12,516 bases of DNA from a virus (Duplodnaviria > Heunggongvirae > Uroviricota > Caudoviricetes), in the IMG/VR virus record IMGVR_UViG_2537561727_000005, positions 1-12,516 of that record; one strand, 5' to 3'. The notes below the pieces were generated by a model. It saw nothing but the letters and a program-made list of their open reading frames with translations, searched no databases and was not told the DNA's origin. Both the position numbers and the translations under genes were made by a program. This document shows, piece after piece, positions 1-10,784 of this stretch. The first letter of the stretch is position 1. Each line of letters begins with the position of its first letter.

Positions 1-87
1 TGTCCATTAAAAATGATGGACATTATTTTTGTAGAGCCGGAGGAAACAGACCAGACGGTTTAAATGAGCCGGTTACTTTATCATCGC

Positions 88-146
88 CATAAAACAAAAC
101 TCGCCGTAGCGAGTTCAGATAAAAGAAAACCCGCACTCGGCGGGTT
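88..146 (-). terminator. Two tandem rho-independent terminators ending the leftward operon
   Basis: Minus-strand hairpins: 7-bp stem 128-134/140-146 (loop 135-139) followed by U-tract from 118-127; 7-bp stem 98-104/109-115 (loop cgta) followed by interrupted U-tract from 88-97. Confidence 0.55.
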
Positions 147-425
147 CGCATTCGTTCAAATTGCGTTTACTTCTTGGCGTTCTGTTCATCCATATCGATA
201 TACCATGGGTTGCTTCCCTTGGGCATGTTTAACGACTGCTCGCGATAGTATCTGATGCGCTCCATGAAATACTCGCGTGAGTGCTCAGGTTGCTCTCATG
301 ATACCTGCTCAGTGATAACAGGTATGTTAAGGCGCTCTCTGTACTCCATGCCTGATGCTGCAAGGTCAACGTTTACCTTGTTCTGTTTTTCTTTCGATTT
401 CTCGGCGATGTTATGCCTGACATTG

Positions 426-668
426 TCAACCCGCCTCCTTCTGAACATAACGGTTATAAATCAGTCCCTGAGGGCCATAAGGAAGCGGGATGTGCAACTC
501 CTCTGGTTCAGAAACTATCCATTCCCCGGCCATCTCCGCTGGAGAGGTAATGATAAGTTGTTTGCTAATAAAAGGACCACTCCTCTCAACAACAAGCTTA
601 CCATCTTCATTAATAAAAGCTTGGATGTCAGGTGTGCTTCCACACTTGGTGATGCAGCGTTTGAACAT
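426..668 (-). CDS. Small Cys/His-containing hypothetical protein (80 aa from ATG 668; 94 aa if ATG 710), at the position lambda ea8.5 occupies
   Basis: ORF in track; ATG at 668 has a GGGGGGA Shine-Dalgarno 6 nt upstream, ATG at 710 has none; last gene of the leftward operon before the terminators. Confidence 0.5.
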   Translation of the reverse strand: MFKRCITKCGSTPDIQAFINEDGKLVVERSGPFISKQLIITSPAEMAGEWIVSEPEELHIPLPYGPQGLIYNRYVQKEAG

Positions 669-794
669 TTTGTGTCCCCCCATTTTATGGACGGGGTAAT
701 TATAACACATTGAAATATAGTAATATTTGACGTAGATTTCTTTTGATCTATAAGCGATTTTTTAATGCTTTTAAGTTATAAATACTTGTTTTCA

Positions 795-1370
795 TCACCC
801 ATCTTGCTGCGGTGCTACTATTGAAAAGTACTCACACCCTTTAGCCCAAATAGTTTTGATAGTTGTCCAACTGACTGGAACCTTGATTTCGATTCTTCCG
901 CTGCCGTCACAAGTTTCGCAATCATCATCACCAAAGCATTCCGGGCAGCTTATAAACGTAGTTTCTGAAAATTCACCGGATAGCACACCCTTAGCGCCGT
1001 TCTCAGCGGTTAGTTTCTTCGGCACTATAACCCAACCATCCGGAGTTACCGGAGAATTGCCATTTATATCGAAGTTTGGCTCTGCGTCCTGAACCAGGAG
1101 GATGTAACCATTCTTGGCAGTATCAAGTTCTAACGCCTCGGTGACGGTACCGAAATAGCGATTACCTAAATCCGCATCACAAGTGCTTACATCAATGGAA
1201 ACCTCCATGCCTTCGATTAATTCTGGCAAGTTGTAAGTTTGGCTTACAGGTTCTGCTCCCAGTGATGCCAGTGCAATTCGTGCCAGTTCCATTTGTTCGC
1301 CACGAGTAAGCCCGTTTTCAAGCGGATTTTTAATGAACAATTCAATACGTTCTTTGGTAATAGTGGTCAT
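795..1370 (-). CDS. Hypothetical 191-aa protein with C-terminal tandem CxxCxG / CxxCxGxG (DnaJ-type) zinc-ribbon motif
   Basis: ATG at 1370 with AAGGA 7 nt upstream; starts 10 nt after stop of upstream gene; motif CPECFGDDDCETCDGSG read directly in translation. Confidence 0.75.
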   Translation of the reverse strand: MTTITKERIELFIKNPLENGLTRGEQMELARIALASLGAEPVSQTYNLPELIEGMEVSIDVSTCDADLGNRYFGTVTEALELDTAKNGYILLVQDAEPNFDINGNSPVTPDGWVIVPKKLTAENGAKGVLSGEFSETTFISCPECFGDDDCETCDGSGRIEIKVPVSWTTIKTIWAKGCEYFSIVAPQQDG

Positions 1371-1380
1371 TTGTTAGTCC

Positions 1381-2136
1381 TTAAACTGCTAGTTGCAATT
1401 GCATTTCAAAGCGGTCGCGTTGTTCACAATACGCAAGAGAACCAGGGCTATTGTGTGCCTCAATCCGTTCTACCATTAATGCTGCGCGTGTCTCTTTACT
1501 TGCAGGTGCATAAGCCCCAGACCAGGCTTTATCAATACCGATGTTTCGAGCGACGTTCGTACTATCTGCGCTGGCTAAGGGTAATTTTGTGAATATCAGC
1601 GGATTTAACATGCGCAATCCATGTAGTTTCGTAACCGGCTGACCATGCCCATCAACAATGTGACGAATCAGGTCTTTCATTCTGGCTACCGCAAGAGTTG
1701 GGCGCTTTACGTCATAGTCGCCACAACTACCGATAGCCACTCGCGGAAACTCATTGCACAAATGAATAAATCGCTCGTCACTTTCATTCATGTGCCACAC
1801 TGGAACGCCAGCTAGTTTTCCGTGAGGCCACTCATTCAGAAGCGCATCATTTTCCTCCTCTCCGCCATCAATAACATCCGGGATAATGGCAAAATCGAAT
1901 CCTGGGTGATTCTTCCAGCGAGCAACAAACTCGTAGTAATCGCTCCAGTCGATTTTGTTTTTGCCAGCTGCTTTCCAGGCGGTGAATGCACCGTTGTCCA
2001 GCGCGAACGACTGACAGTATTCAGCCGCGAGATTGATCTGGCCTGAATGCGCAAAACTGATAAACGCATGTCGCCCTTTCCATGCTCTCATTGCGCACGT
2101 ATCAGGAGTAATAGGCCCACCGTGGTAGTGAATCAT
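1381..2136 (-). CDS. Hypothetical 251-aa enzyme-like protein; N-terminal H-x-H (MIHYHGG) plus later His/Asp clusters (FAHSG, WHMNESD, VDGHG) suggest a metal-dependent hydrolase or phosphoesterase, family unassigned
   Basis: Track ORF 1381-2178; preferred start ATG 2136 has AGGAG 6 nt upstream and sits 2 nt after stop of upstream gene (2138-2140); no P-loop, no DPPY/NPPY, no CxCxxC...H motif seen. Confidence 0.75.
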   Translation of the reverse strand: MIHYHGGPITPDTCAMRAWKGRHAFISFAHSGQINLAAEYCQSFALDNGAFTAWKAAGKNKIDWSDYYEFVARWKNHPGFDFAIIPDVIDGGEEENDALLNEWPHGKLAGVPVWHMNESDERFIHLCNEFPRVAIGSCGDYDVKRPTLAVARMKDLIRHIVDGHGQPVTKLHGLRMLNPLIFTKLPLASADSTNVARNIGIDKAWSGAYAPASKETRAALMVERIEAHNSPGSLAYCEQRDRFEMQLQLAV

Positions 2137-2137
2137 C

Positions 2138-2545
2138 TCACTCTCCTTTGATGCGAATGCCAGTAGCGCGGATTGCATCGATGACTTCAGAAACTTTGTA
2201 TGCCATTACCGTTTGGTAATCATCGTGAAAATCTGTTCGATGAAGCATGCTGCTACGTTCCGGGAGCAGTATTTCCCGCGCTTCCAGTTCTGCAATGCGC
2301 TTTTTTGCTGCTTCCAGTTCATCCAGTAATTCCAGCACGGTAGCCGGATTAGCCTTGGCAACAAAATCCCGGACTGGCTTACAATCAATCTCCGCAATGG
2401 GTTGATACGATGTGTAGCCATGCTGTCTTGTATAACTACCGTGACGAATAACGAAAAAATCACCATTTATTTTTTTAGCCTGCCACTTATCTTCACCGGC
2501 TTTCTCTGCCGCTTCACGCAGTGCCTGAGAGTTAATTTCGCTCAC
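2138..2545 (-). CDS. Ead/Ea22-like early protein (135 aa) with coiled-coil segment LELLDELEAAKKRIAELEA
   Basis: GTG start at 2545 overlapping stop of upstream gene (GTGA), GAGAGG 6 nt upstream; family assignment from memory of lambdoid early-region proteins. Confidence 0.65.
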   Translation of the reverse strand: MSEINSQALREAAEKAGEDKWQAKKINGDFFVIRHGSYTRQHGYTSYQPIAEIDCKPVRDFVAKANPATVLELLDELEAAKKRIAELEAREILLPERSSMLHRTDFHDDYQTVMAYKVSEVIDAIRATGIRIKGE

Positions 2546-2763
2546 TTCGAACCTCTCTGTTTACTGATAAGCTCCAGATCTTGCTGGCAACTGGCACAAG
2601 TCCGACAACCCTGAACGGCCAGTCGTCTTCGTTCATCTATCGGATCGCCACACTCACAACAATGAGTGGCAGATATAGCCTGGTGGTTCAGGCGGCGCAT
2701 TTTTATTGCTGTGTTGCGCTGTAATTCTTCAATTTCTGATGCTGAATCAATGATGTCTGCCAT
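2542..2763 (-). CDS. TraR/DksA-family C4 zinc-finger protein (73 aa)
   Basis: CCECGDPIDERRRLAVQGCRTCASCQ gives a CxxC-17-CxxC spacing typical of DksA/TraR zinc fingers; common in lambdoid early-left regions. Confidence 0.75.
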   Translation of the reverse strand: MADIIDSASEIEELQRNTAIKMRRLNHQAISATHCCECGDPIDERRRLAVQGCRTCASCQQDLELISKQRGSK

Positions 2764-2810
2764 CTTTCATTAATCCCTGAATTGTTGGTTAATACGCTTG
2801 AGGGTGAATG

Positions 2811-2839
2811 CGAATAATAAAAAAGGAGCCTGTAGCTCC
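2811..2839 (-). terminator. Weak terminator-like hairpin between the exo block and the accessory operon
   Basis: Minus strand GGAGC-tacag-GCTCC (2825-2839) followed by TTTTTTATTATT (2811-2824); only a 5-bp stem. Confidence 0.3.
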
Positions 2840-2861
2840 CTGATGATTTTGCTTTTCATGT

Positions 2862-3143
2862 TCACCGTTCCTTAAAGACGCCGTTCAACATGCCGATCGC
2901 CAGGCTTAAATGAGTCGGTGTGAATCCCATCAGCGTTACCGTTTCGCGGTGCTTCTTTAGTACGCTACGGCAAATGTCATCGACGTTTTTATCCGGAAAC
3001 TGCTGTCTGGCTTTTTTGATTTCAGAATTAGCCTGACGGGCAATGCTGCGAAGGGCGTTTTCTTGCTGAGGTGTCATTGAACAAGCCCCATGTCGGCAAG
3101 CATAAGCACACAGAATATGAAGCCCGCTGCCAGAAAAATGCAT
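2862..3143 (-). CDS. Lambda orf61-like small early protein (71 aa if start at ATG 3077, MTPQQENALRS...)
   Basis: Position and sequence resemble lambda small ORF between ea22 and exo, from memory; start ambiguous. Confidence 0.55.
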   Translation of the reverse strand: MHFSGSGLHILCAYACRHGACSMTPQQENALRSIARQANSEIKKARQQFPDKNVDDICRSVLKKHRETVTLMGFTPTHLSLAIGMLNGVFKER

Positions 3144-3153
3144 TCAGTGGTTG

Positions 3154-3345
3154 TCATACCTGGTCTCTCTCATCTGCTTCTGCTTTCGCCACCATCATTT
3201 CCAGCTTTTGTGAAAGGGATGCGGCTAACGTATGAAATTCTTCGTCTGTTTCTACTGATATTGGCACAAACCTGACTCCAATTTGAGCGAGGCTATGTGC
3301 CATCTCGATACTCGTTCTTAACTCAACGGGAGATGCTTTGTGCAT
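3154..3345 (-). CDS. Lambda orf63-like small early protein (63 aa)
   Basis: ATG 3345 with GGGGAG 4 nt upstream; sequence [23 protein letters not shown]... matches my memory of lambda orf63. Confidence 0.6.
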   Translation of the reverse strand: MHKASPVELRTSIEMAHSLAQIGVRFVPISVETDEEFHTLAASLSQKLEMMVAKAEADERDQV

Positions 3346-3500
3346 ACAGCTCCCCGTTTATTATTTATCTCCTCAGCCAGCCGCTGTGCTTTCAGGGGAT
3401 TTCTGATAACAGAAAGGCCGGGAAATACCCAGCCTCGCTTTGTAATGGAGTAGACGAAAGTGATCGCGCCCACCCGGATATTATCGTGAGGATGCGTCAT
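3318..3500 (-). CDS. Lambda orf60a-like small early protein (60 aa, [17 protein letters not shown]...)
   Basis: ATG 3500 overlaps exo stop as ATGA; sequence matches my memory of lambda orf60a. Confidence 0.6.
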
Positions 3501-4177
3501 CGCCATTGCTCCCCAAATACAAAACCAATTTCAGCCAGTGCCTCGTCCATTTTTTCGATGAACTCCGGCACCATCTCGTCAAAACTCGCCATGTAATTTT
3601 CATCCCGCTCAACCACGACATAATGCAGGCCTTCACGCTTCATTCGTGGGTCATAGTTGGCAAAGTACCAGGCATCTTTTCGCGTCACCCACATGCTGTA
3701 CTGCACCTGGGCCATGTAATCCGACTTTATGGCCTCGAAACCACCGAGCCGGAATTTCATGAAATCCCGGGAGGTAAACGGGCATTTCAGTTCAAGGCCG
3801 TTGCCGTCACTGCATAAACCATCGGGAGAGCAGGCGGTGCGCATACTTTCGTCGCGATAGATGATCGGGGATTCAGTAACATTCACGCCGGAAGTAAACT
3901 CAAACAGGGCTCTGGCGTCGTTCTCGTACTGTTTTCCCCAGGCCAGCGCCTTAGCATTAACTTCCGGAGCCACACCGGTGCAAACCTCAGCCAGCAGGGT
4001 GTGGAAGTAGGACATTTTCATGTCAGGCCACTTTTTTCCGGAGCGGGGTTTTGCTATTACGTTATGAACTTCTGAAGCTGTGATGACGCCGAGCCGTAAT
4101 TTGTGCCACGCATCATCTCCCTGTTCGACAGCTCTCACGTCGATCCCGGCACGCTGCAGGATAATGTCCGGTGTCAT
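3497..4177 (-). CDS. exo: Lambda exonuclease (Red-alpha, Exo), intact 226 aa
   Basis: Translation near-identical along its full length to lambda Exo (MTPDIILQR...GFVFGEQWR). Confidence 0.97.
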
Positions 4178-4368
4178 GCTGCCACCTTCTGCTCAGTGGC
4201 TTTCTGTTTCAGGAATCCAAGAGCTTTCACTGCTTCGGCCTGTGTCAGTTCTGACGATGCGCGAATGTCGCGGCGAAATATCTGGGAACAGAGCGGCAAT
4301 AAGTCGTCATCCCATGTTTTATCCAGGGCGATCAGCAGAGTGTTAATCTCCTGCATGGTTTCATCGTT
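4174..4368 (-). pseudogene. bet: bet (Red-beta) C-terminal remnant, about 65 codons; N-terminal roughly 200 codons deleted
   Basis: Translation ...NDETMQEINTLLIALDKTWDDDLLPLCSQIFRRDIRASSELTQAEAVKALGFLKQKA..QKVAA matches lambda Bet C-terminus; upstream in-frame sequence is unrelated and hits a stop at 4420-4422. Confidence 0.9.
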
Positions 4369-4370
4369 AA

Positions 4371-4832
4371 GCAGCAGAGAAGAAACGACGACGAGAGGAG
4401 CAGAAACAGAAAGATAAACTTAAGATTCGAAAACTCGCCTTAAAGCCCCGCAGTTACTGGATTAAACAAGCCCAACAAGCCGTAAACGCCTTCATCAGAG
4501 AAAGAGACCGCGACTTACCATGTATCTCGTGCGGAACGCTCACGTCTGCTCAGTGGGATGCCGGACATTACCGGACAACTGCTGCGGCACCTCAACTCCG
4601 ATTTGATGAACGCAATATTCACAAGCAATGCGTGGTGTGCAACCAGCACAAAAGCGGAAATCTCGTTCCGTATCGCGTCGAACTGATTAGCCGCATCGGG
4701 CAGGAAGCAGTAGACGAAATCGAATCAAACCATAACCGCCATCGCTGGACTGTCGAAGAGTGCAAGGCGATCAAGGCAGAGTACCAACAGAAACTCAAAG
4801 ACCTGCGAAACAGCAGAAGTGAGGCTGCATGA
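4371..4832 (+). pseudogene. ninG: ninG C-terminal remnant, about 150 codons with no start codon; N-terminal roughly 50 codons deleted
   Basis: Frame translation [17 protein letters not shown]...[11 protein letters not shown] matches lambda NinG C-terminal portion; in-frame stop at 4368-4370. Confidence 0.85.
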
Positions 4833-5494
4833 ATATCTACGAAAGAATTGATGGCAGCAAATACCGAAATATTTGGGTAGCTGGCGACCTGCACGGATGC
4901 TACACGAACCTGATGAACAAACTGGATACGATTGGATTCGACACCAAAAAAGACCTGCTCATCTCGGTTGGCGATTTGGTTGATCGCGGTACAGAGAACG
5001 TCGAATGTCTGGAATTAATCACATTCCCCTGGTTCAGAGCTGTGCGTGGAAACCATGAGCAAATGATGATTGATGGCTTATCAGAGCGTGGAAACGTTAA
5101 TCACTGGCTGCTTAATGGCGGTGGCTGGTTCTTTAATCTCGATTACGACAAAGAGACTCTGGCTAAAGTTCTTGCCCATAAAGCAGAAGAACTTCCGTTA
5201 ATCATCGAACTGGTGAGCAAAGATAAAAAATATGTCATTTGCCACGCCGATTATCCTTGTAACGAATACGAATTTGGAAAGCCAGTTGATCCTCAGCAGG
5301 TAATCTGGAACCGCGAACGAATCGGCAACTCACAAGACGGGATCGTGAAAGAAATCAAAGGCGCGGACACGTTCATCTTTGGTCATACGCCAGCAGTGAA
5401 ACCACTCAAATTTGCCAACCAGATGTATATCGATACTGGCGCAGTGTTCTGCGGAAACCTCACATTGATTCAGGTACAGGGAGAAGGCGCATGA
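4829..5494 (+). CDS. Lambda-type Ser/Thr protein phosphatase (orf221/NinI family), intact 221 aa
   Basis: Near-identical to lambda phosphatase incl. GDLHG and GNHE metallophosphatase motifs; ATG overlaps ninG stop (ATGA). Confidence 0.95.
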
Positions 5495-5623
5495 GACTCG
5501 AAAGCGTAGCTAAATTTCATTCGCCAAAAAGCCCGATGATGAGCGACTCACTACTGGCCACAGTTTATTGGTTTTCGTAACTGAGTCATTTTATTATTTT
5601 ATTGCAACTTTTAATCTTTTATA

Positions 5624-5672
5624 GTGCGAAATAAATGGAGCTGGCATTCATTTCGCACTTTATGTTTTTGTT
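5624..5672 (+). terminator. Rho-independent terminator downstream of the phosphatase gene
   Basis: 10-bp stem AGTGCGAAAT (5624-5633) / ATTTCGCACT (5650-5659), 16-nt loop, followed by TTATGTTTTTGTT. Confidence 0.5.
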
Positions 5673-5705
5673 GGACTTATGTTATTTTGATTGAATTCAA
5701 TTCAG

Positions 5706-6665
5706 TTAAAAAAAGAAGGTGATTGCTCCATTTATAAATGAATAGTCATCCCCTGTCTTGAATTCTGATGTTACTTTATTAAATGCTAGTGTGAAGGCTA
5801 CAGGTGCATACCCAATTGTTGCGCCAACTTGATATTCATCAACAGTTTTGTTTAGCGATACTGTTGTTTGTTTCGTCTGTATTGTTTTTCCTTCGAGAGT
5901 ATAGTTGCGATTGACATCTCGTCTTTCCATACCTGCAAAAATCTTGTATTTGAATCCGCTTGTATCGGACATATGCATTAAACCACGGGGAGCCAGCAGA
6001 CCAAAGCCATTATCCGAATTGAAGGTTTTATCATTACCAATGGCAATGGTTGCGCCATATGCTACATATTGAAATAAGTTTCCAGTAACAGCAGAAACTT
6101 CAGGGTATAATCCAACATTAGCACCTAAAATATCCATACTTGGTGTCATGGATAGCATCCCTTTTACAGTATAACCGTAGCGATTCTCTATTTGATCATC
6201 CCATGCATGATATTTTTCTGCCCCAATAATCTCATGAGCTTTATTTTGTACTTTCTGACCGCCTGCGTCGGGGCCAACAACACCTATGTCAGTACCTAAT
6301 CGATAGCGAATCCAGTCATTCGCAAGGGAGTTCCATTCAATACCAGTGTGAGTGTATGCACTAAAAGCTCTGTCTCCAGTTACAGCTGTGTTGTGTCTTT
6401 TATTACTGCCTGATGGAGAGTAAATATCTTGCGCAATATGGAGAGATAATTGGCTCGAGTCTGAGATATCGTGGCTATATCCCAGAAATAAGCCTTGTGA
6501 GTAATCATCTCTGTTTTCATGTTTATTGCCATAAATATCATTAAGTATTGGTTGAAACTTCCCTGCATCATCATTTGCTAATGATAATGCAAGGCTGTTC
6601 GCGATAGCTGAACACGTGGTAAATGACAGAGCAATAAAGACGCCAGCGATGACACTTTTTTTCAT
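5706..6665 (-). CDS. lpxR: Outer-membrane lipid A 3'-O-deacylase LpxR-like (319-aa precursor, 22-aa signal peptide, C-terminal aromatic beta-barrel signature ...AITFFF)
   Basis: Signal peptide with AIA cleavage motif; mature numbering places N9, D10, S34, K67, Q118 and H122 where I recall the Salmonella LpxR active-site residues; 319 aa equals Salmonella LpxR precursor length; gene is markedly AT-rich. Confidence 0.8.
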   Translation of the reverse strand: MKKSVIAGVFIALSFTTCSAIANSLALSLANDDAGKFQPILNDIYGNKHENRDDYSQGLFLGYSHDISDSSQLSLHIAQDIYSPSGSNKRHNTAVTGDRAFSAYTHTGIEWNSLANDWIRYRLGTDIGVVGPDAGGQKVQNKAHEIIGAEKYHAWDDQIENRYGYTVKGMLSMTPSMDILGANVGLYPEVSAVTGNLFQYVAYGATIAIGNDKTFNSDNGFGLLAPRGLMHMSDTSGFKYKIFAGMERRDVNRNYTLEGKTIQTKQTTVSLNKTVDEYQVGATIGYAPVAFTLAFNKVTSEFKTGDDYSFINGAITFFF

Positions 6666-7140
6666 ATGTTATTGTCTTCCTTTTTTTTGAATGGTGCGCG
6701 TATTTTACATACATGAGTTTGTAATACAAGGTGCGTAATCAATATGATGTTTTATAATTGCGTGAGACAATTGATTTATTCGTTTTTTATTGCGGTTTTT
6801 ATTATCTTTTAATGTAACAGTGTTTTTATTAAGTGTGTTTGCGTGGTGTTTTATGTTTTTTATAATTTTTATTTTATTAAATTTAAATGCATTAGTAATG
6901 GCTATTCTATATAGCAATATAAGAACTGTTACAAAAAAAGGGGGGGCAATTACAGGTAGTTATGGATGATGAGTGAAACAGATATTGGAGAACCGGGGAA
7001 TGAATGATGTCTGAGTCTTATATATCAGAACTCCTTCGCTGTCGCTGGGGGCTCCTGTGCTTATGTCGTTTCCCCGATTCGGTTTTGAACGATTACCGAA
7101 TGTTGAAGAATTATGCCAAAATATAGAAAGGATTTACTGC

Positions 7141-7830
7141 ATGAATACCCAATATTTACAGTATGTTCGTGAGCAACTTATGGCAGCTACTGCTGACTTG
7201 AACGGAGCAACGAAAGGCCAGCTCGAAGCCTGGCAGGAGCATGCACAATTTGATACTGGTACATACAAACGAAAGAAGCCGCGCATTCTGGATGTGGTAA
7301 CTGGCAAGATGATTACGCTGGATAATACGCCGACTTCCGGTAAGCAGTCGTACGCAAAAGGTTCATCCATTGCTTTGGTCAGCCCGGTTGAATTCTCAAC
7401 CTCTTCATGGCGCCGCGCGGTTTTGTCTCTCGATGAACATCAGAAAGCATGGTTGCTTTGGTGTTACAGCGAAAGCGTTCGATGGGGGCATCAGGTCACC
7501 ATAACGCAATGGGCATGGAGCGAGTTTAAGGATTTGTTAAGTAACAGAAAAATTGCAGGTAAGACACTGGATCGCCTGAAGACGTTAATCTGGCTGGCTG
7601 CACAGGATGTGAAGAGCGAACTTGCAGGGCGTGAGGCCTATGAATACCAGACACTGGCATCATTGGTGGGAGTGACAACAAAAAACTGGTCCGAGACATT
7701 TACTGAACGCTGGGTTGCAATGAAGCACATTTTTCTACAGCTTGATAGTGATGCTTTATTGCTTGTGACGAGAACACGTTCAAAACAAAAGGCAGCATTT
7801 TTACAGCAAAATATTGCAAAACTGGATTAA
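7141..7830 (+). CDS. Late-gene regulator at the Q position (putative Q-like antiterminator), 229 aa from ATG 7141
   Basis: Track ORF 7057-7830 starts at GTG; ATG 7141 has AAGGA 8 nt upstream; function inferred only from synteny (between nin region and lysis genes), I do not recognise the sequence. Confidence 0.5.
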   Translation: MNTQYLQYVREQLMAATADLNGATKGQLEAWQEHAQFDTGTYKRKKPRILDVVTGKMITLDNTPTSGKQSYAKGSSIALVSPVEFSTSSWRRAVLSLDEHQKAWLLWCYSESVRWGHQVTITQWAWSEFKDLLSNRKIAGKTLDRLKTLIWLAAQDVKSELAGREAYEYQTLASLVGVTTKNWSETFTERWVAMKHIFLQLDSDALLLVTRTRSKQKAAFLQQNIAKLD

Positions 7831-9623: not shown

Positions 9624-9839
9624 ATGTACCAGATGGAAAAAATAACAACAGGTGTGTCATACACCACGTCAGCGGTGGGGACGGGATACTGGCTACTGCA
9701 GTTGCTGGACAAAGTCTCCCCATCCCAGTGGGTGGCAATAGGCGTATTGGGTAGCTTGGTGTTTGGCTTGCTGACGTATCTGACAAACCTTTATTTCAAG
9801 ATTAAAGAAGATAAGCGTAAGGCTGCGAGAGGTGAATAA
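9624..9839 (+). CDS. S: Class II holin of the phage-21 S type (pinholin), 71 aa, with dual-start motif M-Y-Q-M (holin/antiholin)
   Basis: Close match to my memory of S21/EssD (…[51 protein letters not shown]); GGAGACGGGG upstream of ATG 9624; track ORF extends to GTG 9579, which lies inside the upstream terminator. Confidence 0.9.
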
Positions 9840-10117
9840 TGTCGCCATCATTACGCAAGGCTGTTGCTGCTGCTATTGGTGGTGGGGCTGTTGCCATAGC
9901 GTCTGTGCTCATCACTGGTCCGAGTGGTGACGATGGCCTGGAAGGTGTCAGCTACATACCATACGAAGATATCGTTGGCGTATGGACTGTATGTCACGGA
10001 CACACCGGAAAAGACATCATTCCCGGTAAAACGTATACCGAAGCAGAATGCAAAGCCCTCCTGAATAAAGACCTTGCCACGGTCGCCAGACAAATAAACC
10101 CGTACATCAACGTCGAT
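9839..10117 (+). pseudogene. R: SAR endolysin (phage-21 R type lysozyme) N-terminal fragment, about 93 codons, C-terminal half deleted
   Basis: N-terminal SAR segment ([20 protein letters not shown]) and catalytic Glu/Asp/Thr region match R21 from memory; homology stops at ...NPYINVDI where terminase A sequence begins. Confidence 0.85.
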
Positions 10118-10418
10118 ATATCGAACAGTCAGGTTAACAGGCTGCGGCATTTTGTCCGCGCCGGGCTTCGCTCACTGTTCAGGCCGGAGCCACAGACCGC
10201 CGTTGAATGGGCGGATGCTAATTACTATCTCCCGAAAGAATCCGCATACCAGGAAGGGCGCTGGGAAACACTGCCCTTTCAGCGGGCCATCATGAATGCG
10301 ATGGGCAGCGACTACATCCGTGAGGTGAATGTGGTGAAGTCTGCCCGTGTCGGTTATTCCAAAATGCTGCTGGGTGTTTATGCCTACTTTATAGAGCACA
10401 AGCAGCGCAACACCCTTA
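10118..10418 (+). pseudogene. A: Terminase large subunit gpA N-terminal fragment (codons about 3-100), fused in frame to the endolysin fragment
   Basis: [100 protein letters not shown] matches lambda gpA N-terminus. Confidence 0.9.
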
Positions 10419-10784
10419 TTCCAGGTTGTCCTGGGGGCTGCCGCCATTGCCGGATCATTCTTTACCGCCGGAGCCACCCTTGCAGCATGGGGGGCAGCCA
10501 TTGGGGCCGGTGGTATGACCGGCATCCTGTTTTCTCTCGGTGCCAGTATGGTACTTGGTGGTGTGGCGCAGATGCTGGCACCGAAAGCCAGAACTCCCCG
10601 TACACAGACAACGGATAACGGCAAACAAAACACGTATTTCTCCTCACTGGATAACATGGTTGCCCAGGGCAATGTTCTGCCCGTTCTGTACGGTGAAATG
10701 CGCGTGGGGTCGCGGGTGGTATCTCAGGAAATCAGCACGGCAGACGAAGGGGACGGTGGTCAGGTTGTGGTGATTGGTCGCTGA
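10419..10784 (+). pseudogene. I: Tail assembly protein gpI C-terminal fragment (about 120 codons), out of frame with the preceding gpA fragment
   Basis: [48 protein letters not shown]...GQVVVIGR matches lambda gpI C-terminus; stop at 10782-10784. Confidence 0.9.

Follow-up and report, generated by a model that had tools for sequence, protein, structure and literature searches.

The window considered here (the whole stretch of DNA that was analysed, 12,516 nucleotides in length) retains the gene order and orientation of lambda, with exo and bet reading leftward and the nin, Q, lysis and terminase genes reading rightward, as seen both in its open reading frames and in the annotation of identical DNA. 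The left arm, also termed the exo-xis or ea region (77..3496, minus strand), contains a holE-like pseudogene, hypothetical genes, Ead/Ea22, a TraR/DksA zinc finger, DUF1382 and DUF1317, and yields Pfam matches to Ead_Ea22 and zf-dskA_traR. It is followed by an intact exo gene for lambda exonuclease (3497..4177, minus strand, 226 aa, from the open reading frame list), which carries the RefSeq name 'lambda exonuclease family protein', aligns over 226/226 residues at 99.6% in tblastn, and has a start codon that overlaps the stop codon of bet (ATGA). Next come two gene fragments, a bet stub (4174..4371, minus strand) and a ninG (rap) stub (4371..4832, plus strand), and then an intact ninI gene for the Nin221 serine/threonine phosphatase (4829..5494, plus strand, 221 aa, from the same list), the start of which overlaps the ninG stop and the product of which aligns over 221/221 residues at 95% in tblastn.

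The segment that follows (5491-6665) holds a 24-codon stub of a lambda-type Q gene (Q') and then, on the minus strand, lpxR, which encodes a lipid A deacylase; a second, different, full-length Q lies at 7141-7830. A strong hairpin at 5623-5659, after the Q' stub, has a 15-bp stem, a z value of -3.4 (176-nt stretch folded), and a T-run on the plus strand. The combination of truncated Q, inverted lpxR, ylcG and second Q is a trait of the Sp3/CP-933K family (Sp3 in O157:H7 Sakai, CP-933K in EDL933) and is present at window positions 5491-7830; by this arrangement, the element is a member of that O157 prophage family. The Q'-lpxR joint is common to 619/5,426 complete genomes, including those of O157, and O157, O145 and the clade that shares the bet-ninG junction described below have the same protein accessions for lpxR and Q. 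In addition, the same Q'-lpxR-Q module coexists with a complete immunity/replication region in the prophage of strain 03_3013.

Other scars and features in the window

At the left end, positions 1-76 are the end of an IS66-family element (ISCro1) that lies between a small xis-proximal gene and the holE-like pseudogene. This element is present in STECUZB006 and, by the starts of the alignments, also in BA92, MFDS1001074 and Z1323CEC0012; FORC 064 and a dog isolate, Z1323PEC0012, lack it, and their matches start at window position 77. The phage-borne gene for a HolE-like DNA polymerase III theta subunit (167-448) carries an internal stop and has a pseudogene annotation, and because it is in the same state in the otherwise intact prophage of E. 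coli O78 strain 3, its inactivation predates the decay. At 668-1233 (segment 13770-14333 of O78 strain 3), a 137-aa 'DnaJ' is annotated in intact relatives, with no gene called in the junction genomes despite 99.95% identity of the DNA; the missing call probably reflects a point mutation or a difference in annotation.

Several further joints lie in the lysis, packaging and tail regions. The holin gene is intact in the window; FORC 064 and STECUZB006 both break inside holin at window position 9688/9689, past which FORC 064 has a 432-bp holin-rrrD deletion and STECUZB006 has a holin'-lysis'-nohD' arrangement. The idea that the window is FORC 064 throughout was rejected, as the two differ downstream of 9689. 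Judged from these breakpoints, the lysis region of the genomes sharing the bet-ninG scar is a small hotspot, with deletions that arose independently or are nested in one another. A second deletion junction in the window, at 10116-10120, has a 5-bp overlap; there the rrrD lysozyme gene breaks off after approximately 94 codons and runs into the large terminase gene from its codon 2 onward. Compared with the dog isolate, approximately 2.7 kb is missing, which comprises the remainder of rrrD together with Rz, Rha, ylcI and the small terminase gene. The resulting fusion ORF (9839-10618, 259 aa) gives Pfam matches to both Phage_lysozyme and GpA_ATPase. At approximately 10419-10422, the large terminase gene, cut after some 300 bp, abuts an N-terminally truncated tail assembly gene, and because these two fragments adjoin, the element has lost every head gene and most of its tail genes. 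Finally, at approximately 12385, a truncated tail-tip gene abuts a C-terminal fragment of a tail-fibre gene; the coordinates of these last two joints were transferred from the annotation of Z1323PEC0012 and STECUZB006.

The junction between bet and ninG

The bet stub comprises the C-terminal 65 codons of the gene (198 bp retained), corresponding to residues 197-261 of the 261 in Bet according to BLASTP, the open reading frame list and RefSeq, and 64/65 residues are identical to Bet (E=4e-44, BLASTP). Its sole in-frame start is an ATG at 4356 (M202 of Bet), which leaves a 60-aa open reading frame, and an in-frame stop lies upstream at 4422-4420. According to the same three sources, the ninG stub comprises residues 51-203 of the 203 in NinG, having lost the N-terminal 50, and is identical to NinG at 153/153 residues (E=7e-116, BLASTP). 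It is directly preceded by an in-frame TAA (4368-4370), and no ATG, GTG or TTG occurs ahead of a GTG at 4632. Because neither fragment has an early in-frame start and both have in-frame stops upstream, both stubs are, as read from their frames, pseudogenes. RefSeq already flags them as partial pseudogenes, labelled 'Bet, missing N-terminus' and 'NinG, missing N-terminus' and meeting at one base, in FORC 064 and STECUZB006. A tblastn similarity to Bet that reached residue 177 (window position 4437) was rejected as over-extension by BLAST, as the codons there are unrelated when compared by hand and the stop at 4422-4420 intervenes.

The position of the joint could be fixed to within two bases. 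In megablast searches of 5,426 complete E. coli genomes and of phage records, the leftward match on the bet side ends at window position 4370 every time and the rightward match on the ninG side starts at 4369 every time. A three-way alignment with a per-base comparison places the switch between the parental sequences at a 2-bp AA common to both (4369-4370), so that the window agrees with the bet parent as far as ...CATCGTTAA and, starting with AAGCAGCAG..., with the ninG parent; the same alignment and comparison revealed no filler DNA, no IS end or remnant and no target-site duplication at the joint. Identity on the ninG side is 232/232 bases in many E. coli genomes, 99.5% to phage 434 and 99.4% to the prophage of O145 RM9872, and at the DNA level both flanks of the junction are 97-99.5% identical to lambda, 434 and other lambdoid phages. 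On these alignments, the joint is a deletion scar in a lambda-like prophage, with a fragment of bet standing head to head with a fragment of ninG. A sequence-only reading of this DNA had the two fragments abutting at about 4368 and 4371, positions that prove to be within 1-2 bp of the true 4370/4369. Its view that both genes are cut short relative to intact relatives also held on alignment (Bet 197-261/261 and NinG 51-203/203), and the microhomology that it suggested looking for amounts to only the 2 bp between breakpoints 4370/4369, which is at chance level.

The exact bet'-ninG' junction occurs in 5 of the 5,426 complete E. coli genomes, namely, FORC 064, MFDS1001074, BA92, STECUZB006 and Z1323CEC0012. 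Because the same joint is found in these five independently assembled complete genomes, it is not an assembly artefact. It was found in none of the phage records, and a 40-mer across the junction had no match in GTDB species representatives or in JGI metagenome contigs. In all of the junction genomes inspected, int and xis, which lie outside the window, adjoin ybhC in the neighbourhood of the lambda attB site, and both genes are intact in FORC 064. Rightward, these genomes carry the Q' stub, the inverted lpxR, ylcG, the second Q, remnants of lysis, packaging and tail genes, and nle genes. The last of these, also outside the window, are nleB2, nleC, nleH1 and nleD in STECUZB006, which has all four, and nleB2 in FORC 064. 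At such a frequency (5/5,426), the junction could serve as a precise marker of its clade.

Extent and origin of the deletion

What the prophage has lost was assessed with 21 proteins from intact relatives, none of which matched the window in tblastn. For N and for the repressor, two variants each served as queries; the others were gam, kil, cIII, an ea10-like gene, ral, sieB, cro, cII, O, P, ren, ninB, ninE, ninF, a methyltransferase gene and two accessory genes. As controls, exo, ninI and the two stubs were all recovered. The annotated elements of FORC 064 and STECUZB006 likewise contain none of the 21 anywhere. Lambda boxB and operator patterns had no match in the window at <=3 mismatches, a weakly informative result, as it depends on the immunity type of the ancestor. 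The sequence-only reading had stated that no N or repressor remains, and the searches with the N, cI and cro of relatives bear this out for the window. Its list of deleted genes stands as regards the 5' part of bet, gam, kil, cIII, N, cI/cro, O and P; its 'ninA-F', however, follows lambda naming, and the exact content of this portion is inferred from the closest relatives, the nin region of which contains ren, ninB, sometimes a methyltransferase, ninE and ninF.

The two arms have separate best relatives. Over the 4,294 bp of the left arm (window positions 77-4370), identity to segment 13178-17471 of the apparently intact O78 strain 3 prophage is 99.95%, and this match stops at 4370 inside a full-length bet of 261 aa, past which that prophage continues with gam, kil, cIII, N, a LexA-family repressor gene, cro, cII, O, P, ren and nin. 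The right arm, from 4369/4371 onward, is 99.2-99.4% identical to the prophages of O145 RM9872 and O157:H7 F3113, in which ninG is full-length. The putative ancestor is thus one reconstructed from two sets of relatives, and the collections searched contained no relative with both arms at least 99% identical plus an intact middle. Two intact prophages, those of O78 strain 3 and CUPS03, are identical to the element in the int/xis neighbourhood, and as far as the breakpoint their left arms match it at 99.3-99.95%. Unlike the present element, they keep bet at full length along with gam, kil, cIII, N, cI, cro, cII, O, P, ren and nin, and their late regulatory region is of the rusA/quuD type in place of ninG/lpxR. 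The whole gam-kil-cIII-N-cI-cro-cII-O-P-ren-nin block is therefore present in intact relatives at the same attachment site. The missing stretch measures 8,633 bp in phage 434 coordinates, approximately 10.4 kb in lambda coordinates (ninG end at 42580, with the bet end derived from the known lambda exo coordinates), and approximately 9-9.5 kb when the closest relatives are spliced together.

Because lambda order and orientation are kept, intact relatives carry the block and the 21 genes are absent from the window, we read the joint as a deletion. Homology did not drive it, since the parental sequences are identical in register at 19/100 positions around the break (50 bp on either side). Furthermore, an overlap of at least 2 bp is expected at P of about 0.16 under a random-join model, that is, at chance level. 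The joint has the marks of an illegitimate deletion, in that the parents share a few base pairs there and mobile-element ends are absent. We thus consider the scar to be, with a probability of about 0.9, a homology-independent (illegitimate) deletion, made in one or several steps within a lambda-like prophage at the lambda attachment site by ybhC, which left an immobile prophage behind. According to this proposal, bet codon 197 would have been fused to ninG codon 51 by this deletion, or by the final one if several were nested, with a loss of about 8.6-10.4 kb, depending on the reference phage. Lost together with the 5' part of bet would be gam, kil, cIII and N, the repressor/cro/cII switch along with pL and pR, the genes O, P and ren, and the early nin genes. 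The resulting scar would be functionless.

Insertion elements or short repeats might suggest another origin, because IS elements border the gaps of relatives (IS3 in O145 and IS1 in 2023CK-01509) and an 8-bp direct repeat, CAGCAGAG, occurs at 4333-4340 (from bet) and again at 4372-4379 (from ninG), 39 bp apart. However, an IS-mediated deletion with later loss of the IS would require room at the joint, and the parents run unbroken to the same 2 bp, leaving no space for an IS end or a target duplication. Homologous recombination between the CAGCAGAG copies is similarly contradicted, as both copies survive and are out of register with the break; the repeat was rejected as a mediator and is probably due to chance. 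A 9-mer common to both parents, ATGGTTTCA (offsets -16 and -102), is also out of register and was rejected. An origin of this type is very improbable, and base-level alignment effectively refutes it.

The separate relatives of the two arms raise the question of whether arms from two different lambdoid prophages were fused by illegitimate recombination. The best left-arm relative (O78 strain 3, 99.95%) does have another right arm, of the rusA/quuD/ompC type, and the best right-arm relatives (O157 and O145, 99.2-99.4%) have left arms that are approximately 97% identical or absent. Such mosaicism is nevertheless routine among lambdoid phages by way of homologous exchange, both arms stand in lambda order and orientation at one attachment site, and F3113 holds both arm types together. 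In addition, a fusion between prophages would delete or invert the intervening chromosomal DNA, and there is no sign of either beside ybhC. We therefore regard a joint between prophages as quite unlikely, and a deletion within one prophage remains the preferred reading.

Whether this deletion occurred at once is a different matter. Under stepwise decay, the joint would record the final one of at least two nested deletions rather than a single event of 9-10 kb; the first might, for example, have removed N-cI-cro-cII-O', as is the case in O157 F3113, with a wider one coming after it. Relatives in intermediate states are consistent with such a course: F3113 lacks only the stretch from upstream of ea10 into O'; the bet'-ninE joint of typical O157 is wider and could be nested over the F3113 loss; and the deletion in the dog isolate (window positions about 2070-4558) engulfs the bet'-ninG' scar. 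Against this, an intermediate with the present element's own arms was not found, and a single event involves fewer steps. Both histories yield an identical sequence, and because only the last scar survives, one deletion and several nested ones are not distinguishable from these data; we consider the stepwise course possible, although somewhat unlikely.

Serial decay of the family and its probable consequences

Comparison of related prophages reveals several alternative ways in which the same module has been lost. In typical O157:H7, bet, with 672 of its 786 bp kept, is joined to the ninB/ninE boundary with a 0-bp overlap, and in O157:H7 F3113 the only stretch missing is the one from upstream of ea10 into O. 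O145 RM9872 has an IS3 between the xis-proximal gene and ren, and in 2023CK-01509 the left arm is intact as far as ral and is then followed by IS1 copies and the host gene ybhB. The dog isolate Z1323PEC0012 has a 756-nt hypothetical gene joined to ninG further in, with a 3-bp ATG overlap (its positions 4994-5024). It is otherwise 99.9-100% identical to the window, and its deletion, from approximately 2070 to approximately 4558, takes exo, the exo-xis genes and the bet'-ninG' scar. This pattern is one of serial, lineage-specific decay of a single prophage family. The roughly ten genomes inspected contain at least five different junctions by which the same module was removed (bet'-ninG', bet'-ninE, ea10..O', the IS3 gap and hyp'-ninG'). 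A tentative and rather doubtful suggestion is that prophages of this family at the lambda attachment site lose their immunity-replication core repeatedly, and perhaps under selection rather than by neutral decay. If this is true, repeated selection could lock in the lpxR and nle virulence cargo and remove toxic early genes.

The closest described counterparts are Sp3 and CP-933K. Like the present element, they are defective lambdoid prophages at the same ybhC-bioA lambda attachment site, with a right arm (ninG-ninI-Q' stub-lpxR-ylcG-Q) that is 99.2% identical, the same nle cargo downstream, repressor/cro and O/P missing, and the Red system disrupted. There are also differences: in O157, 672 bp of bet are joined at ninB-ninE, whereas here 198 bp are joined inside ninG; the left-arm ea region of the present element is of another mosaic type; and the present element has further lysis, packaging and tail deletions. 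A broader parallel is provided by the K-12 cryptic prophages DLP12, Rac and Qin, lambdoid remnants without regulatory, replication or structural modules that persist as immobile chromosomal islands with a few useful genes, although these occupy other attachment sites, differ in gene content and arose by separate deletion events.

Sp3 itself has been studied experimentally. Asadulghani et al. reported that Sp3 of O157 Sakai lacks CI/Cro and O/P and has a disrupted Red system, and Sp3 was neither circularised, replicated nor packaged (PMC2669165). By analogy with Sp3 and with lambda biology, the present element would be a 'grounded' prophage. As judged from its gene content, it would be left without a repressor, early promoters, an antiterminator, cII, O and P, and it should be unable to induce, excise efficiently or replicate. 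The pI promoter of int needs cII. Low-level excision may remain possible, because int and xis are intact in FORC 064. Deletion of the repressor only would be lethal, so that the deletions seen would be ones that also remove the early promoters or the functions under repressor control. The element would then persist as a chromosomal carrier of lpxR, which is in the window, and of nleB2, nleC, nleH1 and nleD downstream in the junction genomes.

Transcription would be affected as well. Because pL, pR, N, cII, O and P are gone, the exo-xis genes, int/xis, ninI and the second Q would be cut off from their normal transcription, which for the exo-xis region proceeds from pL (PMC10789677). That the surviving genes depend on their own promoters or on read-through, as the sequence-only reading proposed, is a reasonable inference from the loss of pL, pR and N, and lpxR and the nle genes are cargo that is probably expressed independently. 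A consensus scan of positions 3400-5800 gave no promoter excess near the junction (3 sites vs 3.0 expected) and placed none for either stub, and an Rfam scan of the whole window returned no family at threshold. We also considered the idea that read-through from lpxR may give leftward transcription into bet'/exo; the hairpin between lpxR and Q' has no U-run on the lpxR strand. In a published transcriptome table, exo and bet of CP-933K are listed as detectably expressed (PMC10789677), which hints at residual transcription in a relative without pL, with cross-mapping between prophages being possible.

Overall, the bet'-ninG' scar is real, yet it is ordinary prophage decay of a kind well described for O157 prophages, and the one mildly novel aspect is that the same module has been lost repeatedly and independently at a single attachment site. 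Taken alone it matters little, being one lineage-specific decay step in a prophage that carries virulence genes, but it explains why the element should be immobile and non-inducible. It is also one data point in a series of independent deletions, and this series could be used to gauge how, and how fast, prophages become domesticated.
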